Assembly (NCBI GenBank): GCA_038064495.1
Contig: JBBTSZ010000004.1
Span: 5,363-69,362 of the forward strand
Length of the DNA: 64,000 bases
Origin: Patescibacteria group bacterium
GTDB taxonomy: Bacteria; Patescibacteriota; Minisyncoccia; Phycocordibacterales; Phycocordibacteraceae
Direction: 5' to 3'
The notes under the pieces are model-generated. The model was not told the DNA's origin. It ran no database searches and worked only from the letters and a program-made list of their open reading frames with translations. Of this stretch, positions 7 to 55,240 are shown one piece after another (the stretch's first letter is position 1; the number at the start of each line of letters is the position of its first letter). The position numbers and the translations under genes were made by a program.

Positions 7-1860
7 ATGAAACGAATGACAAGGAACCGCTTTATCTATAGTGTTTTTCTCGGATGTATTTTGTTGCTTCCGTCCTACGATGCGCACGCGGCAATGCTTC
101 AAACCCAATGGGCGAGTTCCTGTCCAGCAGGTTGGGTTTCAACGGGAATTACCGATGATAACTTTGATTCATATCATCATCTCGGCGAGGGTTTTGTACA
201 AGGCGCAATTGTTCAGCTCTGCATCAAGTCTGATGATGCAAGCATAACTCTCTTTTCTGAATGGAATGCAGGCGCAACCTGTTCAACTGACTATTCATTC
301 ATGAATTTGTATGATGACCTTGGCGACACGTCTCAATCGAGCGATCTACCGTCGCTTCACGACACAAACGAAAATAGTTATTTGCCAAGTGGCAGTAATG
401 ATAACCACTGGTGTCTGAAAGCAACTGGAGACAGCTCGACGAGCATAGTGCCTCTTTGGCGTGTCTGGAATAGTTCAAACACAGATGGACCTGGTTGCCA
501 ATCGGATGAGACAGTGATTATGGACGGAATTAATAGCGTATTCAATCTTAATCACGCAGTTCACACAGGAGCGAACGAATCCTCACTTTGTTTAAAGATT
601 GTCAGTGACGGGGCCTGTGGAAGTGCAAACGGTGTTGAAGTATCATCAGCTCCAAGCACTGATTTGTGTCTTGTGGGAACAGCAAGTGCCGTGAGTGGAA
701 CAGGACCATGGACATGGAACTGTACTGGAATAAATGGTGGAGTGACGGCATCTTGTTCCGCACCTAAAACAGCAAGTGTCCCGCCTACGGATCCTATAGT
801 TACCGGTACGGCGACCTACACAAATACCTCATATCCTTTCACGTTTACCTCAACTGATCCAAATGGCGACCCACTATGGTATGGCATTGACTGGAATGGA
901 GATGGAACAACCGACGAACTAGCTCCTGCTTCAGGAACTGTTCCAAGCGGAACACCACAAAGCGTAAACCACCAATGGGCTGTTGCCGGAGACTATGTAT
1001 TTAAAGTGCGTGCTATACGTGGAGCTTCCATAGAATCTGCATGGGTCTCAACCTCTATTCATGTTGAAGATCAAAGTGCTCTGCCAGTAGCGTTGATTAC
1101 TGCATCTCCCGAGACTGTTGCGCCAGGAAATTCAACTACGCTTACCTATACCTGTTCCGGCGGAACGTCAGCATTCATCAATAATGGCGTAGGCACTGTT
1201 GTTCCTGCAACAGGTGGAAGTACGGTAGTAACTCCTGCTCAGACAACAACGTATGAACTTATCTGCACAAACGCAGCAGGTTCAGCTGAAGACTCTGTTG
1301 TTGTGACCGTCGCTCCTCCGGGTTCGTTATCATGTACCGTATCGAATCAAAATCCTGAAGTCGGAGAGCTGATATCGTATACCGTCACTCCTTCGAGTGG
1401 TGCTGCTGGTCCCTACACCTGGGATGACTCAAATGGAGGAACGTACGGAACCGGAAATAAAGCACTTCGTACCATGGAAGCGATAGGAATCTATGCCATG
1501 AGTGTGCAGGGAATGAATGCACCCGAGGCATTCTGTCCGCAGGTAACGGTGGGAGCTAACTCCTGTAGCCAACCTTCTTCAGGCACGATTACTGCAACAC
1601 CAAGTCGGGTAAATCCTGGTGGTAGTACGGTTATCGCGTGGACTCTGAATAGAGGAGTTGGCGTTGCCTGCCACGTGACTGGTCCAGGACTTTCAGTAGA
1701 TATACCAATTCAAGCAACATGCGAAGGACCAATTCCTGTGTATGAAGATAATTCCTCTCCACAAACCATTACTGCACAATCTACCTACGTCATCACTTGT
1801 GATAGTGTTCAAGTCGCGCGTAAGACAGTAAACGTCATACCAGCAGTCAATGAGTTCTAG
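7..1860 (+). CDS. Secreted Cys/Thr-rich surface protein, paralog A (Ig-like repeats, conserved C-terminal module)
   Basis: ATG start; signal peptide MKRMTRNRFIYSVFLGCILLLPSYDAHAA; many Cys; repeated about 80 aa units (SL/ASxxAxP..TxxYxLxCTN); C-terminal about 180 aa homologous to the C-termini of the 2891 and 5726 proteins, ending VNVIPAVNEF. Confidence 0.75.
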   Translation: MKRMTRNRFIYSVFLGCILLLPSYDAHAAMLQTQWASSCPAGWVSTGITDDNFDSYHHLGEGFVQGAIVQLCIKSDDASITLFSEWNAGATCSTDYSFMNLYDDLGDTSQSSDLPSLHDTNENSYLPSGSNDNHWCLKATGDSSTSIVPLWRVWNSSNTDGPGCQSDETVIMDGINSVFNLNHAVHTGANESSLCLKIVSDGACGSANGVEVSSAPSTDLCLVGTASAVSGTGPWTWNCTGINGGVTASCSAPKTASVPPTDPIVTGTATYTNTSYPFTFTSTDPNGDPLWYGIDWNGDGTTDELAPASGTVPSGTPQSVNHQWAVAGDYVFKVRAIRGASIESAWVSTSIHVEDQSALPVALITASPETVAPGNSTTLTYTCSGGTSAFINNGVGTVVPATGGSTVVTPAQTTTYELICTNAAGSAEDSVVVTVAPPGSLSCTVSNQNPEVGELISYTVTPSSGAAGPYTWDDSNGGTYGTGNKALRTMEAIGIYAMSVQGMNAPEAFCPQVTVGANSCSQPSSGTITATPSRVNPGGSTVIAWTLNRGVGVACHVTGPGLSVDIPIQATCEGPIPVYEDNSSPQTITAQSTYVITCDSVQVARKTVNVIPAVNEF

Positions 1861-1923
1861 TCACAGGACGTAGAATAGGGGATAAGCTACGTTCGCACGG
1901 TAGACACTCGCTACAATACCTAC

Positions 1924-2904
1924 ATGCCTCCTGAACAACCACAAGAAAATACCGCCTACGAACAACAGGAAGAAAGTTTGTGGAAAAAGCAGAAAATAGC
2001 GGTTGTGTGTGGGGCTCTCGCCACACTCGTGGTGCTTGCACTGTTTTTCTTCGAGTTCAAGTCACGCCTGATACTACCAGGTGACAACATTGTTATCTCA
2101 GCCGGTTACTTTCGAGTGAGTCCGTTGTATATCGTCAACAAAGCGACAACAACACCAGTGCTCGTCAGTTACGGTGGAGTCGAGAAGAAAGCATTTGATA
2201 TGCTTATACTCAGTGATGGCTCCAAACTTTATTCTCTTCGTGAAGAGAGTGATGTACCGTCTTTAAATATCTACCGGGTGGATATCGAAGGTACCGTTAC
2301 ACAATTAACAAACAGCCCGACAGTGAAATTCAATATTTCAGCAGATCCTTCCGAGACGCATATTATTTACGAAGAAATGGTTGCCAAAGACGACCTGGAG
2401 ATATCTACTACTTCTTCGTGGGATATACAGCAACTTGATTTAAACACGCGTGCTGTTGAGCACATAACAAGTGGCGTGCAACCACGATATATACGCTCAG
2501 GTGCTCTTTTGGTCGGTCAAAAGAATGGAGTAGTCCTCTACCACCCCGAGAATCAGTCACGCAAGAGTGCGAGTTCCACCCCGGTGCTTTCTTCCAAAGT
2601 ATATTCACTCTATGCGGTGAGCGCAGAGGGAGAACACGTCGCTGCCTACAACACCAAAACAGGCGCAGTAGATGTATTTGACGTTACGGTGGCAGGGACA
2701 CTTTCCTATGCTTACTCGAGCAAGCCTGAGCACCAACCCTCCAATATCAGCTTCAGTGACGGAGAGCCAGTCTCAGTAGAATCAACCCCGTCTCCTCGTG
2801 GAGTCGTGTATACGGTAACCCGCTATAGCGTAAGCCGTACCGAATGGAACATTACTGGTCCGCAAGGACTTATAGCCCAGCGACTCATATATGCATCACA
2901 TTAA
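1924..2904 (+). CDS. Single-pass membrane protein with predicted beta-rich (TolB/PD40-like) ectodomain, paralog 1
   Basis: Short charged N-terminus then TM IAVVCGALATLVVLALFFF; remainder beta-strand-rich; paralog of 4780..5733; stop overlaps start of next gene by 14 nt. Confidence 0.6.
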   Translation: MPPEQPQENTAYEQQEESLWKKQKIAVVCGALATLVVLALFFFEFKSRLILPGDNIVISAGYFRVSPLYIVNKATTTPVLVSYGGVEKKAFDMLILSDGSKLYSLREESDVPSLNIYRVDIEGTVTQLTNSPTVKFNISADPSETHIIYEEMVAKDDLEISTTSSWDIQQLDLNTRAVEHITSGVQPRYIRSGALLVGQKNGVVLYHPENQSRKSASSTPVLSSKVYSLYAVSAEGEHVAAYNTKTGAVDVFDVTVAGTLSYAYSSKPEHQPSNISFSDGEPVSVESTPSPRGVVYTVTRYSVSRTEWNITGPQGLIAQRLIYASH

Positions 2905-4714
2905 AAGACCACTCTTTTTCATAAGTTTTATTCTCCTCGTTACTGCGCCGGGGCAGGCGTATGCGTTTTCCTACACCCAAGTACACACACTGTGGCAGGA
3001 CCCCGCCTACGTTTCAAACAATGCTCCAGACTACCTTGGTCCAACCTTCCCAGGATGGGGCTTGTTTCCTTTTTTCGCTGACCCGGTAGGACCTTTAGGG
3101 ACATATCCGACCTATGAAGCTATGTGTGACTCGTTTGCCACGGCGCAAGGCTACACGAACACCACTGACTTTTATTGTGTCTACGATGCTCAAATGAGTA
3201 GTTCTAGTTTCGGAACACCGTGTTTTGGCACTGCATGCTCACCGGGCGTAGGAACCATCAACATTTACAATGGCTTTGTTAAATTGTATACAAATCCACC
3301 GACACAGACATCCTATGCAACAATCAGTGCACAGCTTACTGCTCTCTGGACCACGTGGCTTAGCAATGTAGGTCTTGGCATACTCCCGAATCCGCTCCCA
3401 ACCAACCCAGACGTCTGTGACCGGTCAGAAGTATTTAGTGGTCTTATACCGCCGCTTGGATTCAACCCTCCTAACTCAATTCCATTCTACGACAGGTGCA
3501 ATATTTATCATCATGTAGGAATGCCTTCGAGTGTACCCAGTGCTTCGCTTTCCGCTACACCCCCAACAGTAACAGCAGGAAGTAGTGCATTGCTTACGTA
3601 CACCTGTAGTAATGGCGCCACCTCAGCAACCATTGATAATGGTGTCGGGTCAGTTACTCCCGCGGCAGGAGGGAGTGTGCCGGTGACACCAGGCTCTACC
3701 ACCACCTATAGCCTTGTTTGTACAAACGCAAATGGCGCAAGTGTTCCAGCCGTTACAACCGTAACGGTTATCCCTCTCCCAACGCTGCCGGACTTGACTA
3801 CCGGAGCTATCTCACCAACCACTGCAACCGCAGGGCAGTCCACGAGTCTTTCCGCGCCGGTATCAAACACGGGTAATGGGGCAACTGGAGTAGTCTTTAC
3901 TGACCTGTTCCAAAGCGCCACTGACTCATCGGGTAGTAACGCAACCGATATCGGTACGTATCCGAGTATTGCACTCCCTGCAAGCATTGGTAACCTCGCA
4001 CTCCTTTCCTATACCTTCCCGACGGCAGGAACCTACTACCTTCGTGCGTGTGCTGACAAATCATCTAGTGGAAGCCCCGGAGTTATTTCTGAGTCTAATG
4101 CCCTTGGTACCGCAGAAACCAACAACTGTGGCCCATGGACAGCCGTTACGGTTGCTTCTGCGGGAGTACCGAGTGTTTCCTGCACCCCCTCAAATGCAAA
4201 CCCACCAGTTGGCGGAACCGTCATCTATACCGCAACAGTCGGTGGAGGAGCGGGAGCGCCCTTTACGTGGAATCCGTCACTTCCATCAGCTTGTACTGCA
4301 AGTACGGGAAGTACCATCTCGTGTACCTTCACGACGGCAGGCCTCTACGCTATGAATGTGTCTGCTACAGGAGTCGCAGGCTCAGTACCATGTTCTCCAA
4401 ATCCTATTCAAGTTGGTGCCCCATCGTGTGCGGTGCCAGCGAATGCAACACTGACGCCAAGTATGAATCGTGTTCGACAGGGAACCGGCACGACCATTAG
4501 TTACAACGTCACTGGTGGCATCAACACCTCGTGCACTATCACGGGTCCCGGAGCTCCCGGCACCATCAACGCAAATGCCTGTGCCCTGAATCCATCATCA
4601 GGTTCCTTCTCAACTGGACCACTGAATTCACAAGCTACCTACATCATTAGGTGTGACGGCACCGAGCTCTCTCGCACTATCGTGAATATCATTCCGAACT
4701 TCAAAGAGTTCTAG
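2891..4714 (+). CDS. Secreted Cys/Thr-rich surface protein, paralog B (Ig-like repeat + CARDB-like domain + conserved C-terminal module)
   Basis: Signal peptide (…LLVTAPGQAYA); CARDB-like hallmark DLTTGAISPT…ESNALGTAETNNCGPWTAVTV; last about 310 aa about 70-80% identical to the 5726 protein; ends TIVNIIPNFKEF. Confidence 0.8.
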   Translation: MHHIKRPLFFISFILLVTAPGQAYAFSYTQVHTLWQDPAYVSNNAPDYLGPTFPGWGLFPFFADPVGPLGTYPTYEAMCDSFATAQGYTNTTDFYCVYDAQMSSSSFGTPCFGTACSPGVGTINIYNGFVKLYTNPPTQTSYATISAQLTALWTTWLSNVGLGILPNPLPTNPDVCDRSEVFSGLIPPLGFNPPNSIPFYDRCNIYHHVGMPSSVPSASLSATPPTVTAGSSALLTYTCSNGATSATIDNGVGSVTPAAGGSVPVTPGSTTTYSLVCTNANGASVPAVTTVTVIPLPTLPDLTTGAISPTTATAGQSTSLSAPVSNTGNGATGVVFTDLFQSATDSSGSNATDIGTYPSIALPASIGNLALLSYTFPTAGTYYLRACADKSSSGSPGVISESNALGTAETNNCGPWTAVTVASAGVPSVSCTPSNANPPVGGTVIYTATVGGGAGAPFTWNPSLPSACTASTGSTISCTFTTAGLYAMNVSATGVAGSVPCSPNPIQVGAPSCAVPANATLTPSMNRVRQGTGTTISYNVTGGINTSCTITGPGAPGTINANACALNPSSGSFSTGPLNSQATYIIRCDGTELSRTIVNIIPNFKEF

Positions 4715-4779
4715 ACAAAAATCTACTCTGGATTGGGGATTAAAAAAACGACAGCCTGAATCAAGGCTATACTAGACGC

Positions 4780-5733
4780 ATGCCTCCGATACAAAGCATC
4801 CCGGGAATGCCAGCGACCCCATCTTTTACAAATCACCCCAGACACTGGAATAAAAAGATATGGGCACTCGTCTTTGGTGCGATAGCTACTGTTGTAGTAC
4901 TTACGATGTTTTTCCTTGAATGGAAATCAGGACGCCTCCACTTCTCCGAACCAACAATCCTGCTAAGTCCGTCGGAAGCGCCTTTGTTTCAGGCTCTCAC
5001 CATCAATTTAGGTGGAAAAACGACCTCGCCAATTTTGGTAGAAGGCCTTGGTACCGCAGTCGTTACTGATATGGCTCCAAACAAACAGAGAAACTATTAC
5101 TTGATAGCAAACCAATCACTCACTGAATCAAATCTTTATTCTTCAGATTCCCATAACCCGCAAGCAGGCCTGAGTCAGAGAACGTTCTCGCACACCACCA
5201 AATTCAGTCTCTCGTATGACCCGCAATCAGGCGCAGTCGCGTATGTATCGAAAAAGGGTAGTGAACCTGGCGTAATAACGCTTCTCCTGCAGGGCACGAC
5301 AACAGAGAAGTTGCTGGGAGAGGGATCTAATCCAGAGTTTCTGAAAGGAGGATTTTTTGTAACGTATCAAAAAGGTAACGAAGTCCTTTCAGTAAACGTG
5401 CACACAAAAGAGACACACACCCTGTTTACTATTCCCGAGGGAGGCACGTATGCTGTAGACGGAGAAGGACTGCGAGCAGTTGTGTATGATCCGACAACAC
5501 GCACTCTCCAGTATTTCTCACTTGAGGGCATGACATCTGCAAGCTTTACGACGTTTAAGAAAGAAGAAGGAGTAGCTATCCAGAGACGTATTCTAGGAAT
5601 TTCTGGAGACACGCTTGCAAGTCTTATTCAAGCCGAGGAAGGTATCTCTATTACCCTTGGGAAAGACAAACCAGTCTTCTTCGGAGGTGTTACAGCACAC
5701 GAACACTCACGACTGACCATCTATCATGACTAA
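4780..5733 (+). CDS. Single-pass membrane protein with predicted beta-rich ectodomain, paralog 2
   Basis: Same architecture as 1924..2904 (N-terminal tail, TM IWALVFGAIATVVVLTMFFLEW, beta-rich ectodomain); N-terminal regions align; stop overlaps next gene start by 8 nt (ATGACTAA). Confidence 0.6.
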   Translation: MPPIQSIPGMPATPSFTNHPRHWNKKIWALVFGAIATVVVLTMFFLEWKSGRLHFSEPTILLSPSEAPLFQALTINLGGKTTSPILVEGLGTAVVTDMAPNKQRNYYLIANQSLTESNLYSSDSHNPQAGLSQRTFSHTTKFSLSYDPQSGAVAYVSKKGSEPGVITLLLQGTTTEKLLGEGSNPEFLKGGFFVTYQKGNEVLSVNVHTKETHTLFTIPEGGTYAVDGEGLRAVVYDPTTRTLQYFSLEGMTSASFTTFKKEEGVAIQRRILGISGDTLASLIQAEEGISITLGKDKPVFFGGVTAHEHSRLTIYHD

Positions 5734-8116
5734 TACTTCACAACTTCCCGTACTCGGTTTACTTACTTCGGCTGTGGTGATAGGTATATCGTTGTTTGCA
5801 TCGCATGCTGTATACGCGCAAACATACACAGCCGGTTCTTGTGGTGCGACAATAGTATCGAGCATAAATGCTTTTGACTGTAGCTCAAACTATTTGACGT
5901 GTGCGCCTGACCAATTAGGACAAGATCGCATACCTGCAACTAAATTACGAGAGTGTCCCGCGGGAAGCGGCGATTTCTATCTAATTGATCAGCCAGGAAG
6001 ATGTATTGCTGATCCTGTATGCGCCTTCGGAGCACCGTCTGCAAGCATAACTGCGAATCCGGCCTCTATTGTGCGTGGGAATAGCAGTGCTGTTTCCTGG
6101 AGCTCAGCAAATACAACCTCGTGTACGAGTACCAGCTTCTCCACTGGTAATGCTACGAGCGGCACGATAGCGGTATCGCCCACACAAACGACAAGCTACG
6201 ACGTTACCTGTACGGGTCCCGGCGGTTCAACGGGTATAAAAACTGTCACTGTCACCGTCACCGCTCCCGTGTTTGATGCTAGTTGTTCAGTTAATCCAAC
6301 GTCTGCACAAATTGGAGAGACGGTTACGTGGAGTGCCAGCGCATGGAATGGAACCGCACCTTATACATTTTCTTGGATTGGACAAATTATAGAAGGACTC
6401 ACAGGATCCAGTGCATCTGTGTCCTATTCAACTTCAGGTGTAAAGACAGGATCGATACAGGTAACAGACTCAACATCTAATGGAACAAGTGTCAGTCTAA
6501 CCAATAACGACAACAAAATTTGTACGGGACCTGTAATTGCATCAAACATTACGCCCGGACTTCAAGAAGACGGAGGAACACAGTCGGCTATGCAAAATGA
6601 GGCGTACTCCTTTACTAGAGGAGGTTTTCGTGGAGGTATTGGTATCTTCTATGACCAATCATACAGTGCCACCTATGCTACAGTTAAGGCAAATCCTCAG
6701 AACTACTGTATAGATGTAAAACTCTCACAACGGTGTAATCCTCCTCCTGGTTGGGAAGGTTGTAATTGGAGTTTCGATATAGATATTCACCAAGGAACGG
6801 GTCTACGAGACCCTCAAGCGAGCGATCAAGGTCCGTATGTACCGAATCAAAACGGATTTGGTACTTGGAATCAAGCGCGTTTCTTTGGTGCAGTACTTGG
6901 AACACCAGTCTCAGGAGCTCAGACAATTAACCGTTCCTGTGTAAACTCAGTTACCGTTGCCGCCGCCGCAACAACAGCAAATCTTTCTGCAAATCCTATC
7001 TCCATTACGCAAGGCAACTCCTCAACGCTTACATGGTCATCCACAAATGCCACATCCTGTACGAGTCCTGACTTCAATACCGGTGGAGCAGTCTCGGGAA
7101 GTATTTCCGTAAGTCCCTCAGCTGACACTATGTACACAGTAGACTGCACTGGTTCTGGTGCTCCTGCATCAAGTTCGGTAACGGTATCAGTCACCGCGGC
7201 TCAATCTGATCTAACTGCTGCAGCGGTTTCTCCTGCCAGTGCAATAGCCGGTACGCTCGTTACACTTTCAGCACTTGTTTCTAATTCTGGAGTTGCAGGA
7301 ACTGGAGTAGGTTTCACAGACCTGTTTCAGCGGGCCACAGACTCCTCTGGTAGTAACGCGACTGACATTGGTACCTATGCGAATACGGCACTCGCCTCTA
7401 GTGGAAATACAAGTGCAACCATGAATTACTCCTTCCCATCAGCAGGCACCTGGTATGTGCGTGCTTGTGCCGATAAAGCTTCAGCTGGCGACAGCGGCGC
7501 CATCAACGAATCAAATGAAGGAAATAACTGCGGTCCCTGGACCGCCATCACGGTTGCTGCTGCAGGAGTGCCTGCGGTTTCTTGCACCCCTTCAAACGCA
7601 AATCCTCCCGTCGGTGGAACCGTCACGTATACGGCAACCCCAAGTGGTGGGGCGGGAGCACCATTCACGTGGAATCCATCACTCCCGTCTGCCTGTACAC
7701 CAAGTACCTCAAGCACGATTTCCTGTACCTTCACAATCGCAGGCCAGTACGCTATGAATGTGTCTGCTACAGGGGTCGCCGGCTCCGTACCATGCTCACC
7801 GAATCCTATCCAAGTGGGTGCTGCGGCTTGTGGTGTTCCTGCCAGCGCAACCCTGACTCCGGTTAACAACCGTGTTCGTAAGGGCACTGGAACCAGCATC
7901 AATTACAACGTGACTGGTGGCATCAACACCTCCTGTACTATCATGGGTCCAGGAGCTCCAGGCACCATCAGTGCAAACGCCTGTACTCTCAATCCATCTT
8001 CAGGCTCTTTCTCCACCGGCAATCTCTCTGCACAAGCAACCTACATCATTACGTGTGATGGTGTTGAACTCAAACGTACGGTGGTGAACATCATTCCGAA
8101 CTTTGTTGAGTATTAA
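5726..8116 (+). CDS. Secreted Cys/Thr-rich surface protein, paralog C (two Ig-like repeats, CARDB-like domain, conserved C-terminal module)
   Basis: Signal peptide (…ISLFASHAVYA); two repeats SASITANPASI…/ANLSANPISI…; CARDB-like DLTAAAVSPA…ESNEGNNCGPWTAITV; C-terminal module shared with 2891 protein; ends TVVNIIPNFVEY. Confidence 0.8.
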   Translation: MTNTSQLPVLGLLTSAVVIGISLFASHAVYAQTYTAGSCGATIVSSINAFDCSSNYLTCAPDQLGQDRIPATKLRECPAGSGDFYLIDQPGRCIADPVCAFGAPSASITANPASIVRGNSSAVSWSSANTTSCTSTSFSTGNATSGTIAVSPTQTTSYDVTCTGPGGSTGIKTVTVTVTAPVFDASCSVNPTSAQIGETVTWSASAWNGTAPYTFSWIGQIIEGLTGSSASVSYSTSGVKTGSIQVTDSTSNGTSVSLTNNDNKICTGPVIASNITPGLQEDGGTQSAMQNEAYSFTRGGFRGGIGIFYDQSYSATYATVKANPQNYCIDVKLSQRCNPPPGWEGCNWSFDIDIHQGTGLRDPQASDQGPYVPNQNGFGTWNQARFFGAVLGTPVSGAQTINRSCVNSVTVAAAATTANLSANPISITQGNSSTLTWSSTNATSCTSPDFNTGGAVSGSISVSPSADTMYTVDCTGSGAPASSSVTVSVTAAQSDLTAAAVSPASAIAGTLVTLSALVSNSGVAGTGVGFTDLFQRATDSSGSNATDIGTYANTALASSGNTSATMNYSFPSAGTWYVRACADKASAGDSGAINESNEGNNCGPWTAITVAAAGVPAVSCTPSNANPPVGGTVTYTATPSGGAGAPFTWNPSLPSACTPSTSSTISCTFTIAGQYAMNVSATGVAGSVPCSPNPIQVGAAACGVPASATLTPVNNRVRKGTGTSINYNVTGGINTSCTIMGPGAPGTISANACTLNPSSGSFSTGNLSAQATYIITCDGVELKRTVVNIIPNFVEY

Positions 8117-8164
8117 GTAGTCCACAGTTTGTTTGAGGTGTGATATACGTGCTTTACTACGAGT

Positions 8165-8356
8165 ATGTCTCGAGGAATGATACTTATCATGCTTGGTATT
8201 TTGATTGCACTCACTCCCTTTGTTGGGCTCCCCTCAGCAATCTTGGTATTCCTTCTCCCACTTCTTGGAGCGATCGTTGCGTTTTTCGGGGGACTCATTC
8301 GAATAGAAGCAACATCGAGACCGATTCAACCAGAACACATTGTTGGTACGAAGTAG
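8165..8356 (+). CDS. Small two-TM membrane protein (hypothetical)
   Basis: 63 aa, two hydrophobic helices (ILIMLGILIALTPFVGL / ILVFLLPLLGAIVAFFGGL); sits between surface-protein block and ATPase; no homology call possible. Confidence 0.35.
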   Translation: MSRGMILIMLGILIALTPFVGLPSAILVFLLPLLGAIVAFFGGLIRIEATSRPIQPEHIVGTK

Positions 8357-8412
8357 CCACTCACACTGCTCTCACGTGAGCTCAAAACCATCAGTATCGT
8401 ATACTGTAGTGT

Positions 8413-10125
8413 ATGGATGAAAATCAGGATCGCGTCACCTATTTTGCAGCGACTGATGCCAGAGGAAGAAAACAACCCTTCGGTATAAAAATGAAGGACC
8501 GTTCCCGTCACATGTATGTGATAGGAAAGACCGGCATGGGTAAATCAACTCTGCTTGAAAATATGGCGATTCAAGATATCCGTAATGGGGAAGGCATGGC
8601 CTTTATTGACCCACACGGAAGTGCAGTGGAAACACTTCTTGACTATATTCCTGCAAACCGTGTGAATGATATTGTCTACTTCGCTCCGTTTGATTTGGAA
8701 CGCCCGATAGCATTTAACGTGATGGAGGATGTGGGCTACGACAAGCGACACCTCGTGGTGTCGGGCCTCATGGCTACGTTTAAAAAGATCTGGGTAGATG
8801 CGTGGTCTGCTCGTATGGAGTACATTCTTTCAAACACACTGCTGGCACTTCTTGAGTACCCAGGCTCCACCTTGCTCGGGGTGAATCGCATGTACACCGA
8901 CAAGGGGTACCGCAAGAAGGTGATTGATAACGTGAAGGACCCCGTGGTGAAAGACTTCTGGGTGAAAGAATTTAATACGTACACCGATCGGTACACCCAG
9001 GAGGCGACACCGGCTATTCAAAACAAAATTGGGCAGTTCACGAGCAATCCACTCATTCGTAACATCATTGGTCAGCCACACTCCTCGTTTGATATTCGCG
9101 AGTTGATGGACAAAAGAAAGATTCTCATCATCAATCTTTCAAAGGGATTAGTGGGAGACACGAACATGAAGCTTCTTGGTTCCATGATTACCACGCGCAT
9201 CTTCCTTGGGGCTATGAGTCGTGCAAACCTGCCTCCCCACGAACTCGTGAAGGCACCTAATTTTTATTTTTACGTAGATGAATTCCAGAACTTCGCAAAC
9301 GAGACCTTCGCGGAAATTTTGTCTGAGGCTCGTAAATATCGTCTGAATCTTATTATTGCGCATCAATATGTGGAACAGATGGAAGAAGAGGTCGCGGCAG
9401 CAGTCTTCGGGAACGTGGGCACGACGGTCGCGTTCCGAGTTGGACCGTTTGATGCGGAAAAACTGGAAGTGGTGTTTGCTCCAGAATTTACCCCCGAGGA
9501 CCTCGTCAACCTCGGTTTCGCGCAGATTTACCTGAGTCTCATGATTGATGGCATTGGCTCCCGGCCTTTTTCTGCAGTTACCATTCCTCCGATAGAGCCA
9601 CCGAAGCGCTCGTATCGTCCTGAAGTGATTGAAGCATCGCGCGCACAATTTAGCGGAGCACGTGAGTCAGTGGAGGGGTTGATTTACGAGGAGCTTGCTA
9701 TGAGTGAGGCTCTTCCGCCTGAACCACCTGCAAAAAAGACCTACCCACCAAAGCGAGTAGAAAATCGAGAACCCAGACTAGAACAACCGAGGCGTGAAGA
9801 GCGACCACCTGAACGACCTCGTCCAGAGGCTCGTAGACCTGAGCGTGAAAAACGTTCTGAACCTCCGCAACAGAGCGTACAAGACCTGAAAGCTATTTTA
9901 CGAGCCACTCTTGAAAAGAGTACTAAAGCAAAAGACATAACACGAGAAGAAAGAACAGGAACCCTCAAAAGCGCACTTTCAGGTGTCGTTCAAAATTCTC
10001 CCGAGCTGAAAAAAGAAGTATCACCGGCACCTTCGCTGCGTGCACATGAATCAAAACCTAAGGCGGAATCTGTGTTTGAGATTCCAGAAGAAGTATTACG
10101 CGACCTTTTCAAAAAGGAACTCTAG
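8413..10125 (+). CDS. Soluble P-loop ATPase of FtsK/HerA/VirD4 superfamily, type IV coupling protein (TraD/TraG/VirD4)-like, with charged low-complexity C-terminal tail
   Basis: Walker A GKTGMGKST; FIDPHGS about 25 aa downstream (T4CP-like DPxG); Walker B YFYVDEFQNF; IIAHQ motif; no N-terminal TM; tail rich in PRREERPPERPRPEARRPEREKR. Confidence 0.65.
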   Translation: MDENQDRVTYFAATDARGRKQPFGIKMKDRSRHMYVIGKTGMGKSTLLENMAIQDIRNGEGMAFIDPHGSAVETLLDYIPANRVNDIVYFAPFDLERPIAFNVMEDVGYDKRHLVVSGLMATFKKIWVDAWSARMEYILSNTLLALLEYPGSTLLGVNRMYTDKGYRKKVIDNVKDPVVKDFWVKEFNTYTDRYTQEATPAIQNKIGQFTSNPLIRNIIGQPHSSFDIRELMDKRKILIINLSKGLVGDTNMKLLGSMITTRIFLGAMSRANLPPHELVKAPNFYFYVDEFQNFANETFAEILSEARKYRLNLIIAHQYVEQMEEEVAAAVFGNVGTTVAFRVGPFDAEKLEVVFAPEFTPEDLVNLGFAQIYLSLMIDGIGSRPFSAVTIPPIEPPKRSYRPEVIEASRAQFSGARESVEGLIYEELAMSEALPPEPPAKKTYPPKRVENREPRLEQPRREERPPERPRPEARRPEREKRSEPPQQSVQDLKAILRATLEKSTKAKDITREERTGTLKSALSGVVQNSPELKKEVSPAPSLRAHESKPKAESVFEIPEEVLRDLFKKEL

Positions 10126-10214: not shown

Positions 10215-10254
10215 TGGCCCCTCCGCTCTAGCAACCACTAGAGCGGAGGGGCCA
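10215..10254. promoter_or_regulatory. Perfect GC-rich 17-bp-stem inverted repeat (hairpin) between ATPase gene and glycan operon; terminator-like but no U-tract
   Basis: tGGCCCCTCCGCTCTAG-caacca-CTAGAGCGGAGGGGCCa read directly from sequence. Confidence 0.5.
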
Positions 10255-10303
10255 CCTGTTGCTCGTCCTCTGGTACTCTCGTATCCTACAGACAACTACT
10301 GAT

Positions 10304-11542
10304 ATGAAGCGTATACTCATCTTCTCGTTAAACTACTATCCCGACTTTGTTGGGGGTGCTGAGGTAGCAATTAAGGAGATTACCGACCGTCTGCCGCAGG
10401 AGGAATTTGAATTCCACGTCATAACGCTTCGTTTTAATAGAAACCTTCCAAAGGAAGAAAAAATCGGGAATGTGTCCGTACATCGTATCGGTTTCAGTCT
10501 ACGGGGCGCTACCATACACGACCTTGGTCGGTATCCACTCAAACTCAATAAATACTGGTTTCAGTTCGCAGCAGCGTGGCATGCGCTACGCCTCCACCGG
10601 AAGATCCCCTGTGACGCAATCTGGGCCATGATGGCTCACTCGAGCGCTATTCCAGCAGGACTTTTTAAACGCCTTCACCCGAGTGTCCCGTACCTCCTTA
10701 CCCTTCAGGAAGGAGACCCCCCCGAGTATATAGAACAACAGATGCGAACTGTGTGGCCACTGTTCATCCGAGGAGTGAGAAGCGCTGACTTCATTCAATC
10801 CATCTCAATCTATCTTCAAGCGTGGGGAAGGCGACTACGACCAACCGGGGAGTCCGTTGTTATACCAAACGGGGTTGATATACAGCTGTTTTCTCAAAAA
10901 CCAAACACACCAGCACTCACCGCGTATAAGAACACACTTGGTAAGAAAAAAACGGACATCTATCTCGTGACTACCTCACGACTCGTATTTAAAAACGGCA
11001 TCGATACGGTTATTCGAGCACTTCCAAAACTTCAAGAACACATCTCGTTTCTTATTTATGGAAACGGACCTGACGAGAAGAAGCTACGAATGCTCGTAGA
11101 AGAAATCGGTGTCACATCGCGCGTTCGGTTCATGGGTTACATCTCGCACGCGGACATGCCGCTTGCGCTTAGTGCTTCAGATATTTTTATTCGACCATCA
11201 CGCTCAGAAGGTATGGGCAATTCTTTTATAGAAGCTATGGCAACAGGTGTGCCGGTCATTGCAACTCGTGAAGGTGGCATCCCTGACTTTCTTTTTGATT
11301 CTAAGAACCATCCGGAACAACCTCAGACCGGCTGGTCAGTGAATACCGACGATCCTGATGATGTTGCCCGTATTGTTAATGCCATACTCGCTTCTCCTGA
11401 CACAGTTCGTACCGTGACTCAAAACGCACAAACGCTTGTGACAGAGAAATACGACTGGAACACGGTCGCACGCTCTATCCAGGAACTCTTAGAGAACCTA
11501 ACAAAGGTCTCCGCAATGGGAGGCGAGAACAGGGTACAATAG
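10304..11542 (+). CDS. Glycosyltransferase family 4 (GT-B, group 1)
   Basis: N-terminal ILIFSLNYYPDFVGGAEV; C-terminal EGMGNSFIEAMATGVPVIAT (E-x7-E-like); ATG at 10304 preferred over upstream TTG at 10259. Confidence 0.75.
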   Translation: MKRILIFSLNYYPDFVGGAEVAIKEITDRLPQEEFEFHVITLRFNRNLPKEEKIGNVSVHRIGFSLRGATIHDLGRYPLKLNKYWFQFAAAWHALRLHRKIPCDAIWAMMAHSSAIPAGLFKRLHPSVPYLLTLQEGDPPEYIEQQMRTVWPLFIRGVRSADFIQSISIYLQAWGRRLRPTGESVVIPNGVDIQLFSQKPNTPALTAYKNTLGKKKTDIYLVTTSRLVFKNGIDTVIRALPKLQEHISFLIYGNGPDEKKLRMLVEEIGVTSRVRFMGYISHADMPLALSASDIFIRPSRSEGMGNSFIEAMATGVPVIATREGGIPDFLFDSKNHPEQPQTGWSVNTDDPDDVARIVNAILASPDTVRTVTQNAQTLVTEKYDWNTVARSIQELLENLTKVSAMGGENRVQ

Positions 11543-11547
11543 CCATC

Positions 11548-12645
11548 ATGCGGGTTCTGATAGCCACACCCCTATATCCACCCGAGCTTGGTGGACCAGC
11601 AACCTACTCAAAAATCCTTGAAGAAGGATTACCTGTCCGTGACATAGCCGTTACACTCCTTGCCTTTAGCGAAGTGCGTCATCAGCCGAAAATTTTTCGA
11701 CACCTGCTCTATTTTTGGAAAGCCCTTCAGCTCGCACGCGCTGTTGATGTTGTGCTCGCACTTGACCCAGTCTCAGTCGGTCTGCCAGCGTACCTTGCGG
11801 CACGGCTGGCAGGGAAGAAATTTGTCGTAAAAGTGGTGGGGGACTACGCCTGGGAACAGGGACGTCAACGGTTCGGCATCTGGCTTCCGCTTGATGAATT
11901 TGTCCGCACCAAGGAAGTTCCTTTGCAGGTATTGCTACGACGTACGGTGCAAGAGTTTGTGACACGCAGAGCCCTCCGGGTGATTGTCCCGAGTAACTAC
12001 CTGAAACACATCATACAGTTCTGGGGTATTCCTCAAGAGAAAGTCAGCGTTATTCATAATGCCGTTGCAAGTACGAAGCCGAGTACGGTTCCAAGTGTGG
12101 TCGCCGACTCAGGAACACCAAGAATTATTAGTGTCGGGCGACTTGTTCCGTGGAAAGGCATGCACGGACTCATTAGTGCAATGCCTGAAATACGAACGCA
12201 CGTTCCAACCGCGGAGCTTATCATTGTGGGTGAAGGACCTGACCAGGAACAGCTTGAACGATTTGCTGAAGCGCGTGTTCCAGGAGGTGTGGTGTTTACC
12301 GGAGCCCTTCCTCATGACGAAACCTTGGCAGCAATCGCCGCATCAGATGTTGTGGTACTTAATTCAACCTACGAAGGACTCTCACATCTCCTCATTGAGG
12401 CCCTAACTCAGGGGTCTGCCGTAGTGGCAACAAAGGCTGGCGGAAACCCAGAACTGATTGAATCTGAGAAAAATGGTCTCCTCATTTCTATTGGCGACCC
12501 TGAAGGTCTTGCTCGCGCCTGTGTTCGTCTCCTTACCGACACTGCCTTTGCCGGGAGGCTTAAGATGGAAGCAAAAAAATCAATGCAGGACTTTAGTCAG
12601 GAGCGGATGCTCTTGGCTACGGAAACCCTTCTGCGAGGCGTATGA
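11548..12645 (+). CDS. Glycosyltransferase family 4
   Basis: MRVLIATPLYPPELGGPATY; C-terminal EGLSHLLIEALTQGSAVVAT. Confidence 0.75.
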   Translation: MRVLIATPLYPPELGGPATYSKILEEGLPVRDIAVTLLAFSEVRHQPKIFRHLLYFWKALQLARAVDVVLALDPVSVGLPAYLAARLAGKKFVVKVVGDYAWEQGRQRFGIWLPLDEFVRTKEVPLQVLLRRTVQEFVTRRALRVIVPSNYLKHIIQFWGIPQEKVSVIHNAVASTKPSTVPSVVADSGTPRIISVGRLVPWKGMHGLISAMPEIRTHVPTAELIIVGEGPDQEQLERFAEARVPGGVVFTGALPHDETLAAIAASDVVVLNSTYEGLSHLLIEALTQGSAVVATKAGGNPELIESEKNGLLISIGDPEGLARACVRLLTDTAFAGRLKMEAKKSMQDFSQERMLLATETLLRGV

Positions 12646-13760
12646 ATGTCCTCTTCATCTCAAACGACCCCTCCCTTTGTCTTCCTGAGAGTTCTGCTCG
12701 CACTCGCCTGAAAGGGTATGCCCGCACAATCGGCACGTTGCATGTGCTCACTCCTGCAAAAGAGAATCTTGAAGTAACTGATGAGAATCTCACCATTCAT
12801 GGTGTTCGTGGAAGCGCGGTTACTACATACCGTTCGCGTCTCAAGCGTGGACGTGCCCTCGTGCAGGATGCAGAGATAGAGATAGTCTCAGCACAGGACC
12901 CATTTGAAAACGGATGGCTTGCTCGCGCAATCACTCGTGGCACGAAAGCAAAACTCCATCTACAACTCCATACCGACTTCCTCTCACCCTGGTTTGTACG
13001 AACAGGGTCACTGAGTATGTCATTCAAAAATCGCGTGCGCAGAATGATTGCTGACATATTACTGCCGCAAGCAGACGGTATCCGTGTGGTTTCCGAGCGT
13101 ATCAAGACATCACTCGCTACTCGGTACGCTAATCGTATTCAATCGGTAACCGTACTCCCGATTGCGGTGAGCACTACGGTTCCAGAACGTGCGGAACTTC
13201 CACCGCATTCGTTTCAAACCGTCCTCGTAACCATCGGTAGACTTGAAGCAGAAAAGCATATAGACGATATCTTGCGGGCACTTTCAAAAACACCATCCTC
13301 CGTCGGTCTCTTTGTTATTGGAGAGGGGAGACTCCGTGCTTCTCTTGTTAGGCGTACCCGTGAGTTGCATATATCTGACCGAGTAAGCTTTCTGGGTGCT
13401 CAGACTAACGCCTGGGGACTTATGCAAAGTGCGGATGCCTATATTCAAGCAAGTGTATATGAAGGCTATGGGATGACGCTCGTAGAGGCGGCACTTTCCG
13501 GGGTGTCGATTATCACCACCGACGTCGGGATTGTGGGGGAGGTGCTTACGCCAAAGAAGGATGTTGTGGCAGTATCTCCTGGCGATATCAAGGGCCTTAC
13601 AAGTGCCATTACTGGCCTCACAGGGCCCCTGACAGAGCGAGAGACACGTAGAGCGAACGCTCGCAACTCAGTACAGTCTCATCTGAGCGCGTATCAAAAT
13701 CTAGCCAGTTTAATCACGAGCGACCTTTCGAGGCTTCTTGCTGGTTCTACAAGAGCATGA
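12642..13760 (+). CDS. Glycosyltransferase family 4 / group 1
   Basis: C-terminal EGYGMTLVEAALSGVSIITTDVG; 4-nt ATGA overlap with upstream gene. Confidence 0.7.
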   Translation: MNVLFISNDPSLCLPESSARTRLKGYARTIGTLHVLTPAKENLEVTDENLTIHGVRGSAVTTYRSRLKRGRALVQDAEIEIVSAQDPFENGWLARAITRGTKAKLHLQLHTDFLSPWFVRTGSLSMSFKNRVRRMIADILLPQADGIRVVSERIKTSLATRYANRIQSVTVLPIAVSTTVPERAELPPHSFQTVLVTIGRLEAEKHIDDILRALSKTPSSVGLFVIGEGRLRASLVRRTRELHISDRVSFLGAQTNAWGLMQSADAYIQASVYEGYGMTLVEAALSGVSIITTDVGIVGEVLTPKKDVVAVSPGDIKGLTSAITGLTGPLTERETRRANARNSVQSHLSAYQNLASLITSDLSRLLAGSTRA

Positions 13761-53092: not shown

Positions 53093-55240
53093 ATGTCCAC
53101 CATGAAAACCACATTACGCTGGGTAATTTACATAGCACTTTTTACTATCCCGTTCCTGGCACTATATGTCGCAAACGGCCTGTTTTTCCCGTTTATAACT
53201 GGGAAAGGATTCGCGTTTCGTATTTTGGTAGAAATTGCACTTTTTGCGTGGATTCTCCTTGCGTGCGCAGACCCGGCGTACCGACCTCGTTTTTCATGGA
53301 CTCTGATTCTCTACGCGGTGTTTGTCTCGTGGATTTTTATTGCGGATGTGTTCGGCGTTAATCCACATAAAGCACTCTGGAGTAATTTTGAACGCATGGA
53401 AGGGTGGGTGACTCTTGTGCACGTGTTTGCGTTCTTCCTGGTTACCGCATCGGTATTTACGACTGATAAACTTTGGCGTAAGTGGTGGCTGACCTTTGTT
53501 GCGGTGGCTGCGCTCGTTTGTTGTTATTGCTTACTTCAGCTTTCGGGGGCGATAACTATTCACCAGGGAGGGGTACGTGTGGACGGAACCTTCGGTAACG
53601 CAGCCTATCTCGCCGTGTATCTGCTATTTGGTGCTGCGGTAGCTCTTTGGCAGGCATTTGAGTCAAAAGGGTTCCTCCGATATTCACTCTTTGTGCTCTC
53701 TTTTGTAGAAGTGGTTATTCTCTTCTTTACTGCCACTCGTGGTGCCGTGCTTGGTCTCGTAGGAGCTATTGGTCTTGGTGCACTTCTTTGGATGGTTGAG
53801 TCAGGTTCAAAGGGTAAAAAAGTGGCAGGAGGCATCTTCGTTGCTCTCGTGATTGTTGCCGGAGGGTTCTATCTCCTTCGTGAAAGTGCCTTTGTACAGT
53901 CAGAACCTACACTGCAACGCATTTCCTCCATCTCTATAGGCGATTTAAAAGTTCGCTTTACGCTCTGGGGTATGGCGGTGAAGGGTGTGAGCGAGCGACC
54001 GCTCACGGGGTGGGGCCAGGAAGGTTTTAATTACATATTCAACGAACATTATGTTCCTTCCATGTATCGCCAGGAGCCATGGTTTGACAGAGCCCACAAT
54101 GTCTTCATTGATTGGCTTGTTGCTGGGGGTATTCCTGGGTTTCTTCTTTTTGTCGCTCTTCTGATAAGTGCGGTGCGAGCACTGTATATGGCTGGAGCGA
54201 CTCGGCCTGAACGCGTGATGCTGGTTGCTGCACTCGGCGGATATGCTATTCAAGGTCTCGTGGTGTTTGATAATCTCTTTACCTATGTGCCGCTTGCCGC
54301 AATACTTGCGACCGCACATTCAGTTTCCTCGCGTCCATGGAAGAAGATTGAGGCGCTACCGGTAGCTCGCGAGGCAACGCTCCAGGTCGCCACCCCTATT
54401 GTGGCTGTGTTTGCTGCAACCATTATATGGATGGTAAACGTGCCGAATATCGCAGCATCTAATGAACTTATACATGCCATGTCGTTTACGAGTAACGACC
54501 TCACTTCAAACGTTGACTACTTTAAACAAGCACTTGCAGAGAATACCTACGCGAAACAAGAAATTCGAGAACAGTTAATTATGTTCACCTCGAACGTTGC
54601 GAATCAGCAACAAGGACCCTCACAAGCGATGACGCAACTCGGACAGTTTGCAATGGAAGAAATGGGTAAAGAAGTAGCAACACAGCCAAAGGATGCTCGT
54701 ATTCGCCTTGAGTACGCATTAGGATACCGTGCACTCGGTGACTATGAACATGCACTTGAACAAATTGGTATTGCCCATGAACTCTCACCAAAGAAGCAAG
54801 GCATTCTTCTGGAACAGGGGATTAACTATTGGCAGGTGAACAAATGGGGTGAAGCGCGAGCCTCATTTCATCAGGCGTATGACCTCGATCACTCGTTCCC
54901 CGAACTCGCTGCCTACGCTGCCGCAGGAGACCTAACAACTGGGCACCTCCAGGAGGGCACAGACCTACTTCTTCAGACGGTGGGTACAACTACCGTAGAC
55001 TCTGAGCCGCTCATCCTTGCCTACTACCAAGTGAAGATGTATCCAGAACTCATTCACTCGCTCCAGCTTCAGGTTACCCGTCAGAACGGTTCGGCGGCGT
55101 CTCGTTTCCGTCTTGCCGCAGCGTATGTGGCTGCCGGACAACATGCTGAGGCTCGTGCACAAGTAAACAAAGCTGTTCTTGAGCACCCCGAAGTTGCAGC
55201 TCAAGCAGCTGAATTCATGAAGCACATTCCTGGTGGTTAA
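53093..55240 (+). CDS. O-antigen ligase/polymerase-like polytopic membrane protein with C-terminal TPR-like repeats
   Basis: About 12 TM helices in N-terminal 430 aa; C-terminal soluble helical repeats (AYALGYRALGDYEHALEQ…). Confidence 0.5.
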   Translation: MSTMKTTLRWVIYIALFTIPFLALYVANGLFFPFITGKGFAFRILVEIALFAWILLACADPAYRPRFSWTLILYAVFVSWIFIADVFGVNPHKALWSNFERMEGWVTLVHVFAFFLVTASVFTTDKLWRKWWLTFVAVAALVCCYCLLQLSGAITIHQGGVRVDGTFGNAAYLAVYLLFGAAVALWQAFESKGFLRYSLFVLSFVEVVILFFTATRGAVLGLVGAIGLGALLWMVESGSKGKKVAGGIFVALVIVAGGFYLLRESAFVQSEPTLQRISSISIGDLKVRFTLWGMAVKGVSERPLTGWGQEGFNYIFNEHYVPSMYRQEPWFDRAHNVFIDWLVAGGIPGFLLFVALLISAVRALYMAGATRPERVMLVAALGGYAIQGLVVFDNLFTYVPLAAILATAHSVSSRPWKKIEALPVAREATLQVATPIVAVFAATIIWMVNVPNIAASNELIHAMSFTSNDLTSNVDYFKQALAENTYAKQEIREQLIMFTSNVANQQQGPSQAMTQLGQFAMEEMGKEVATQPKDARIRLEYALGYRALGDYEHALEQIGIAHELSPKKQGILLEQGINYWQVNKWGEARASFHQAYDLDHSFPELAAYAAAGDLTTGHLQEGTDLLLQTVGTTTVDSEPLILAYYQVKMYPELIHSLQLQVTRQNGSAASRFRLAAAYVAAGQHAEARAQVNKAVLEHPEVAAQAAEFMKHIPGG

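Follow-up and report, generated by a model that had tools for sequence, protein, structure and literature searches.

Which process does a type IV coupling protein (T4CP) serve when its gene stands apart from any type IV secretion system (T4SS)? This question is raised by a gene at positions 8413-10125 of a stretch of 64,000 nt of Patescibacteria DNA (contig JBBTSZ010000004.1), which in its full length is called the window here. An earlier note, made from the sequence letters, had described the product as a soluble T4CP-like ATPase and had left it open whether DNA or the adjacent surface proteins are the substrate. We assign the product with high confidence to the T4CP family: sequence comparison and a structural model place it, as a predicted cytoplasmic ATPase, in the VirD4/TrwB branch within the FtsK-HerA superfamily. 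In the Paceibacteria the gene belongs to the chromosomal core, is inherited vertically and is no mobile-element gene. As to its function, we tentatively favour a part in DNA uptake. The gene and its parts are located as follows.

8413-10125, + strand: complete open reading frame (ORF) of a 570-residue T4CP-family ATPase lacking a transmembrane domain (ORF listing, translation, Pfam, homologue search)
8413-9702, + strand: ATPase body, RecA-like nucleotide-binding domain, residues 1-430 (alignment A1, AlphaFold2 model, Foldseek)
8524-8547, + strand: Walker A motif GKTGMGKS, residues 38-45 (motif mapping)
8608-8619, + strand: DPHG box, residues 66-69, aligning with DPNG of TrwB (invariant in 135 sequences)
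8737-9111, + strand: all-alpha domain of ~8 helices, residues 109-233, inserted into the nucleotide-binding domain where TrwB has its all-alpha domain (secondary structure of the model)
9265-9282, + strand: Walker B motif YFYVDE, residues 285-290, followed by FQNF (whole motif residues 285-294; motif mapping)
9358-9366, + strand: AHQ motif, residues 316-318 (Q318 invariant in 135 sequences)
9703-10122, + strand: disordered C-terminal tail of 140 residues, 431-570 (alignment A1, pLDDT <50, composition)
9874-9912, + strand: tail motif 1, SVQDLKAILRATL, residues 488-500 (D491, L492, K493, I495 and L496 at least 90% conserved)
9961-9990, + strand: tail motif 2, TLKSALSGVV, residues 517-526 (K519, A521 and L522 at least 90% conserved)
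10072-10122, + strand: C-terminal motif VFEIPEEVLRDLFKKEL, residues 554-570, a predicted amphipathic helix (alignment, first AlphaFold2 model, motif scan)

The family assignment was evaluated at the level of sequence profiles and of the predicted fold. Three Pfam models exceed their gathering cut-offs, namely TrwB_AAD_bind (36.6 vs 20.5 bits, spanning residues 27-345), TraG-D_C (29.2 vs 22 bits) and DUF87 (27.8 vs 23.2 bits), well outside what chance would give. T4SS-DNA_transf stays narrowly under its cut-off (17.9 vs 20.1), FtsK_SpoIIIE reaches 12.7 of the required 24 bits, and the curated NCBIfam models of T4CPs give partial matches far under theirs (SXT_TraD 44 vs 366, the VirD4-like CD1115 39.8 vs 250, TraD_Ftype 14.9 vs 521). 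The NCBIfam model "DNA-translocating ATPase CedD" matches weakly and partially at residues 20-85 (26 bits, cut-off 600). A profile built from 135 homologues and searched against the PDB sequences retrieved TrwB and DotL only.

The AlphaFold2 model of the body, computed from the alignment of 135 sequences (pLDDT 90.2, pTM 0.88), consists of a RecA-like core with ~8 inserted helices. It supersedes an earlier model from 30 close homologues, which was poor (pLDDT 61). The best Foldseek match is TrwB (E 1e-14, TM-score 0.60-0.63, almost full-length), followed by HerA, DotL, Cagbeta and the C-domain of DndH. The model contains no HAS-barrel, two short strands within ~30 residues being located ahead of the P-loop. 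Since the FtsK_SpoIIIE score is also below its cut-off, we regard the protein as having diverged within the coupling-protein branch and not as a HerA or FtsK proper. Hence sequence profiles, the PDB search and the fold search agree with the family proposed in the earlier note.

The four catalytic motifs named there were likewise recovered. Throughout the 135 sequences G38, G41, G43 and K44 of Walker A and V288, D289, E290 and F291 of Walker B are invariant. The protein exhibits no transmembrane helix: the maximal Kyte-Doolittle mean over 19 residues is 0.36 within the first 60 residues, in line with the lack of a hydrophobic N-terminus claimed before, and 1.35 for the whole protein. The start codon is well defined. 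In-frame stops are located 2 and 12 codons 5' of the ATG, and all 29 aligned homologues share the same N-terminus, M-(D/E)-N-P-(D/E)-R-V-T-Y-F, which begins ~30 residues ahead of the P-loop. The missing transmembrane domain is therefore genuine and no start-codon artefact, and an overlooked N-terminal transmembrane domain was rejected on these grounds. It is less exceptional than the earlier note had implied, since T4CPs without a transmembrane domain are a recognised subfamily, e.g. TraJ of pIP501 (PMC7434980).

The tail was correctly described as rich in Arg, Glu and Pro. As a whole (residues 431-570) it contains 16% E, 14% P, 12% R and 11% K, and the stretch highlighted before (nt 9750-9880, residues 446-490) reaches 27% R, 22% P and 22% E. 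In alignment A1, which comprises 30 Paceibacteria orthologues, the body (residues 1-430) is near-invariant, whereas the Arg/Glu/Pro-rich linker differs in length and sequence. Three conserved islands of docking type stand out in the disordered tail: SxxDLKAILR, LKSAL and a C-terminal helix (F)E(V/I)PExxLRxhFK. A relaxed form of the latter, (E/K)(V/I)PExxL(R/K)xhL, or the variant LERMMRV, is found in most of 82 orthologues. The three tail motifs including the C-terminal helix add to what was known of this family.

The gene is widespread and strongly conserved. A word-indexed homologue search gave at least 8,000 matches, the top 120 of which are full-length, 67-100% identical and named Patescibacteria or Paceibacteria; an exhaustive search gave 21,353 cluster representatives at E<1e-3, of which 5,687 reach E<1e-30. 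At least 596 GTDB species representatives carry the ATPase. On the same genome pairs the median identity is 66% for the ATPase (tail included), 60% for the epimerase encoded nearby, 54% for RsmI, 48% for the Mur ligases and 45% for the GT4 glycosyltransferases, a contrast somewhat inflated as the loci were picked by similarity to the ATPase. The best relative on a plasmid, a Sulfitobacter gene of 38% identity amid recombinases and transposases, is uninformative. The 570-residue product is identical to P0001 encoded on contig CAYHLG010000004.1. Many metagenome-assembled genomes (MAGs) titled "uncultured Candidatus Saccharibacteria bacterium" (e.g. L011, L012, L015, L016, L018, L020) carry the short form typical for Paceibacteria together with its synteny block; these titles may be generic placeholders.

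Many relatives are considerably longer (840-1,140 residues) and consist of an N-terminal transmembrane helix, a DUF8128 domain (PF26449) of ~350 residues, the ATPase and a tail. Over residues 1-440 the body is 45-53% identical to 105 such long forms, which are carried by Microgenomates, Berkelbacteria, Saccharibacteria and others. They are found in housekeeping contexts, and in 5 of 7 loci (L085, L089, L090, L092, L093) a Sigma70_r4/HARE-HTH gene (~350 residues) is located directly 5'. In four loci (L089-L092) a second DUF8128-ATPase paralogue of ~835 residues is encoded within 10 kb; in L090 and L092 it adjoins a T4SS_pilin (PF18895) gene. That the gene is split, its DUF8128 half being a separate ORF in the neighbourhood, was rejected: phmmer with five long-form N-domains found nothing among all ORFs of the window and of 84 loci, leaving no DUF8128-like ORF in the window or the 82 orthologous loci and none within 10 kb of a short form. 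Based on these comparisons, the Paceibacteria protein is a truncated, or never fused, short form of a Patescibacteria-wide family. This relationship is a further addition to prior knowledge; our literature search found no publication on DUF8128.

Relatives of the ATPase body are also observed outside this family. The PHROG family phrog_5156 (E 1e-49) is of unknown function, and its profile of 824 positions is built like the long form. Moreover gp156 of the giant Bacillus phage G (JN638751.1, 91999-93162) is 29% identical to the body; relatives thus exist in phages. P0203, a protein of 1,227 residues from a GC-rich organism, contains an N-terminal domain followed by two ATPase bodies in tandem.

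The strongest functional hint for the family is a neighbour described here for the first time. A single modular family of surface proteins is encoded ≤400 bp 3' of the ATPase on the same strand in 52 of 80 relatives, the median gap from the ATPase to the next same-strand gene being 2 bp. These proteins consist of a signal peptide, an N-terminal module, a PKD domain and a C-terminal transmembrane anchor. In 13 loci (L010, L013, L015, L017, L019, L021, L022, L026-L028, L036, L048, L054) the N-terminal module is a ComEA-type helix-hairpin-helix (HhH; HHH_3 E ~1e-20; TIGR00426 66.7 bits vs a curated cut-off of 53.1). In 32 loci, e.g. L001 and L016, it is a lamin-tail domain (LTD), matching weakly the N-terminus of the extracellular exonuclease ExeM. 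The swap leaves PKD, middle region and C-terminal anchor in place. ComEA-type HhH modules are established in extracellular DNA handling, and for LTDs the weak ExeM match and the Pfam description of the domain point the same way. That both exchange at one position suggests, at the level of sequence, a DNA-binding neighbour. In 4 relatives a type IV pilin-like gene is located just 5' of the ATPase.

Published surveys provide the frame for this hint. A census of 3,035 Patescibacteria genomes found 5,713 homologues of VirD4-type T4CPs in 2,918 of them, only 148 being near virB4 (Quinonero-Coronel et al. 2025, PMC12102498). The orthologue group discussed here is already counted there as "orphan T4CP": KKR54179.1, the orthologue in L051, is listed in Table S3 as a T4CP (t4cp1 profile, 98% coverage, "VirB4 proximity: No"), and its genome also has a second T4CP, VirB2, VirB3 and TrsD (PMC12102498). 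Relaxases are missing from nearly all Patescibacteria (PMC12102498). T4CPs were detected in 96% of genomes and VirB4 in 80% (PMC12102498), a difference which we would expect from two copies versus one in incomplete MAGs and which is no sign of independence from the T4SS. In Southlakia the T4SS was described without recognisable coupling and relaxase proteins (Wang et al. 2023, PMC10633639). The core com set of Patescibacteria comprises ComEC, DprA and ComFC, all dispensable for growth, with no ComFA or ComEA named (PMC10633639); our literature search on ComFA and ComEA in Patescibacteria returned nothing specific. Transposon sequencing in Southlakia showed the T4SS genes to be essential and both the T4CP homologue and the com genes to be dispensable (PMC12102498, PMC10633639).

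Taken together, we consider it possible, with less than even confidence, that the ATPase serves a route of DNA uptake as its cytoplasmic motor or receptor. The protein would assemble into a ring and use ATP to move nucleic acid, or to hand it over, at the membrane, while the tail motifs would dock it to partner proteins encoded elsewhere. The candidate partners are the ComEA-like/LTD surface receptor for DNA, encoded directly 3' in about two thirds of the relatives and not in the window, and the ComEC/ComFC/DprA set of Patescibacteria. Two further points were counted in favour of DNA uptake. The core com set names no motor or receptor, and the T4CP homologue of Southlakia is dispensable like the com genes, unlike the essential T4SS. 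A more far-reaching version, to which we give rather little credence, is that Patescibacteria have turned a conjugative coupling protein into their missing import motor for DNA or host nucleic acids. A ring ATPase which normally pushes DNA out would then pull it in, the surface receptor would bear either ComEA-HhH or LTD interchangeably as its DNA-binding head, and the motor of the Paceibacteria would have been freed from the membrane and docked by the conserved C-terminal peptide.

Several observations weigh against a role in DNA uptake. The 64-kb window contains no ComEA/LTD gene, nor do the closest relatives (78% identity) have one, and the association is restricted to Paceibacteria, being absent from the 7 long-form loci examined. 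The unrelated mur and rsmI genes are equally syntenic, so the gene order of the clade may be inherited inertia. That the homologue is non-essential in Southlakia may just mean that 2-3 paralogues stand in for each other. The usual partners of T4CPs are T4SSs, present in Paceibacteria too, and we know of no precedent or experiment linking a T4CP to competence.

The surroundings of the gene bear on the alternatives. ORF clustering of 82 orthologous loci revealed a conserved block of murD, murC, rsmI, a small ORF with two transmembrane helices, variable envelope genes, the ATPase, the surface protein where present, an epimerase and three to four GT4 genes. Within the window the following features flank the ATPase.

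7-8116, + strand: five genes of a six-gene surface-protein cassette (ORF clustering; no counterpart in the 82 related loci)
8165-8356, + strand: small ORF of 63 residues, a hairpin of two transmembrane helices, 57 bp 5' of the ATPase in a different frame (ORF listing, transmembrane analysis, family profile)
10215-10254, + strand: GC-rich perfect hairpin with a 16-17 bp stem and no T-run (spacer folding, minimum free energy z-score -5.7 vs shuffled sequences)
10259-13760, + strand: three GT4 glycosyltransferase genes, conserved downstream neighbours (GT4 cluster in 62 of 85 loci)

The cassette extends ~1.4 kb further upstream on contig CAYHLG010000004.1 (locus L087, 228-1598), where its sixth gene lies and the order is rsmI, the six-gene cassette, the small ORF and the ATPase. 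In the closest relatives rsmI, small ORF and ATPase follow each other with nothing between. Together with the lack of any counterpart in the 82 loci, this indicates a genome-specific insertion of the cassette between rsmI and the small ORF, which is a new observation. Two of the five large cassette ORFs in the window match CARDB. Three of the five proteins (617, 607 and 796 residues) are Ser/Thr-rich secreted paralogues, alternating with two paralogues of ~320 residues anchored by a transmembrane helix. The three share the C-terminus ...TY(I/V)ITCD...VN(V/I)IP(A/N)(F/V)xE(F/Y), a peptide that might be a sorting or processing signal.

The small ORF belongs to a family that is unannotated in most records. 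It is characterised by a conserved PF(x)G(L/I)P turn (consensus MSRxxLIxxLGxLxxxxPFxGLP...G..LR), and its profile matches in 70 of 85 loci, nearly always 5' of the ATPase on the same strand. A greedy ORF call of 79 residues at 8140-8379, in frame with the ATPase, was rejected as spurious because the genuine small ORF uses another frame. In topology the hairpin corresponds to a T4CP transmembrane domain and is reminiscent of TraI/TraJ in pIP501 (PMC7434980). The small protein is hence a possible membrane adaptor for the ATPase, a putative function for which the linkage is ambiguous: the ORF abuts rsmI, the gap being ~0 bp for the majority of 54 cases, and adjoins the ATPase directly in 19 loci only. 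Being bound tighter to rsmI than to the ATPase weakens the reading as a dedicated anchor.

On the 3' side 134-178 bp of spacer separate the ATPase from the first glycosyltransferase gene; the hairpin within it is probably a terminator or insulator. The closest relatives have a spacer of ~170 bp at this place, whereas most orthologues abut the next gene. Then follow ~45 kb of sugar and glycan genes (10259-56265), i.e. GT4s, GT9, a GT47-like gene, UDP-glucose dehydrogenase, NeuB, DegT and an ABC exporter. The island ends before a gene for a Wzy_C/TPR protein (53093-55240) and the gene following it (55240-56265). In four more distant orthologous loci (L056, L057, L062, L073) homologues of these two genes are located close 3' of the ATPase, with one intervening gene in L057. 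Since the island is absent there and its flanking genes are present, the site looks like an expandable insertion site. In addition to sugar and glycan genes, the window encodes SecA and GatB, the latter with an adjoining amidase-family (GatA-like) gene. VirB4, relaxase and T4SS pilin genes are missing from all 64 kb, as the earlier note had stated for the vicinity of the gene.

With these data the competing explanations can be weighed. The ATPase could be a classical coupling protein acting in trans, i.e. the substrate receptor and motor of the chromosomal MPF-FATA-type T4SS that is encoded elsewhere, usually near dnaA, with the tail and perhaps the small two-helix protein docking it to the channel as proposed for TraJ/TraI of pIP501. 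We consider this conceivable yet somewhat unlikely. T4CPs are the closest family both in sequence and fold, the T4SS cluster of Patescibacteria comes without a coupling protein of its own (PMC10633639), and the census shows how commonly T4CP homologues lie away from virB4, the L051 genome with its VirB2, VirB3 and TrsD included (PMC12102498). Moreover monoderm systems are known to pair a T4CP lacking its transmembrane domain with a small membrane protein (PMC7434980), to which the conserved hairpin ORF 57 bp upstream would correspond, and a DUF8128 paralogue adjoins T4SS_pilin in L090 and L092. However, neither the window nor the 10 kb around the ATPase in the 82 orthologous loci contain a T4SS gene or a recurrent VirB4/relaxase cluster, and the general lack of relaxases, the closer bond of the small ORF to rsmI and a conservation far above the usual for T4SS parts argue against it. 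So does the non-essential T4CP homologue of an organism whose T4SS is essential, although paralogue redundancy could explain this (PMC12102498). Alternatively, the ATPase may be T4CP-derived and exapted for housekeeping apart from T4SS and competence, e.g. for chromosome handling at division or an envelope process. The gene behaves as a core gene, and it recurs by wall and division genes across classes: murD/murC in Paceibacteria, the dcw cluster in L085, murJ and ftsH in L086, ftsQ and a murC-murB fusion in L093. Exaptation was also raised by the census authors, who at the same time report the Southlakia homologue as non-essential (PMC12102498), which speaks against housekeeping. Small genomes are dense in housekeeping genes anyway. 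FtsK is reportedly mentioned for the saccharibacterium TM7x, and a missing division translocase is no obvious gap. Hence we hold such an exaptation for quite improbable.

The remaining explanations fare worse. That the ATPase works with the downstream glycan cluster (epimerase, GT4 array, Wzy-like protein, ABC exporter), energising or organising the assembly of an envelope polysaccharide, is suggested by the sugar genes directly 3' in the window and by the same-strand GT4 genes in 62 of 85 loci, mostly tightly spaced. It is nevertheless very unlikely: the strong hairpin and the spacer separate ATPase and GT4s in the window, long-form relatives lack a sugar neighbourhood, and in more distant orthologues, which are without the island, Wzy_C and a second shared gene directly succeed the ATPase. 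To our knowledge, no ATPase of T4CP or HerA type acts in glycan export. A HerA-like helicase or ATPase of anti-phage defence or DNA modification (mads8, DndH-like, SIR2-HerA-like) would fit a PADLOC match to mad8 (E 2e-15), weak HerA matches, HerA and the DndH C-domain among the fold matches and DUF87 above its cut-off. But none of the 82 loci has an adjoining nuclease, SIR2, DUF4297 or methylase partner, and universal, vertical inheritance in conserved synteny is the reverse of what a defence island would show. With only ~30 residues and no HAS-barrel before the P-loop, and with T4CPs scoring better than HerA in sequence and fold, this explanation appears remote. A defence-system or phage origin was rejected as well, for matches to PADLOC, PHROG and gp156 of phage G exist but the context is chromosomal and syntenic. 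Finally, the surface proteins, which the earlier note had left open as a possible substrate, do not hold up as one. A conserved linkage with the cassette in relatives, whose absence that note had named as refuting, is missing. Physical adjacency is given in one genome only, that with the inserted cassette, whose genes are without homologues in the 82 related loci; moreover the cassette proteins bear ordinary Sec-type signal peptides or N-terminal transmembrane anchors, and SecA is encoded in the window. That the ATPase is their secretion motor can practically be dismissed, and we are highly confident that it is unconnected with the cassette altogether.

For the window this implies that the gene belongs to a conserved core and not to a local secretion or surface-protein system. 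Beyond it, Patescibacteria account for much of bacterial diversity, are unable to synthesise nucleotides and rely on hosts, and the passage of nucleic acids and other goods across their envelope is a standing question. The T4SS is essential in the single genetically tractable species, yet without a recognised coupling protein. A near-universal, strongly conserved orphan ATPase of T4CP type is an obvious candidate for this gap or for the motor/receptor gap of the com system, and its ComEA/LTD neighbour makes the function of the ATPase testable.

Compared with known systems, the ATPase resembles TrwB of R388, VirD4, DotL and Cagbeta in its P-loop nucleotide-binding domain, into which an all-alpha domain is inserted, and in the aligning motifs GxxGxGKS...DP(H/N)G and hhhhDE. 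An acidic or charged C-terminal extension for partner binding is also common among T4CPs (PMC7434980). In contrast to these proteins it lacks the N-terminal transmembrane domain, shares only 14-17% identity at a TM-score of ~0.6, and is encoded by a chromosomal core gene outside any T4SS, relaxase or oriT context, with a median identity of 66% over a whole bacterial class. HerA, the archaeal and bacterial DNA translocase (DUF87), belongs to the same superfamily and is the second-best fold class with DUF87 above its cut-off, whereas the window protein has neither a HAS-barrel nor NurA or another effector partner, and TM-scores are lower (0.51-0.53). TraJ/TraI of pIP501 offers a similar layout with a soluble T4CP lacking transmembrane helices, a small two-helix ORF directly 5' in the window, and the monoderm (MPF-FATA) world in which the T4SS of Patescibacteria is placed. 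Unlike traJ, the gene lies outside any tra operon and the small ORF travels with rsmI, the likeness drawn here being one of description.

Within the Patescibacteria the ATPase is of the same family as the orphan T4CP homologues of the census (PMC12102498). It differs from the DUF8128-T4CP long forms by lacking the N-terminal part of ~400 residues (transmembrane helix and DUF8128), by its own tail motifs and by its neighbourhood, as the long forms usually follow a Sigma70_r4/HARE-HTH gene. For the proposed role, that of an ATP-driven motor in the cytoplasm which handles incoming DNA, the competence motor ComFA of Bacillota and the ATPases of DNA-importing T4SS-like systems (ComB of H. pylori, crenarchaeal Ced) are functional analogues only. 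ComFA, a DEAD-box helicase, has a fold unrelated to that of the window ATPase; the role we tentatively propose would nonetheless resemble the ComFA system, with a motor placed beside a ComEA-type receptor.

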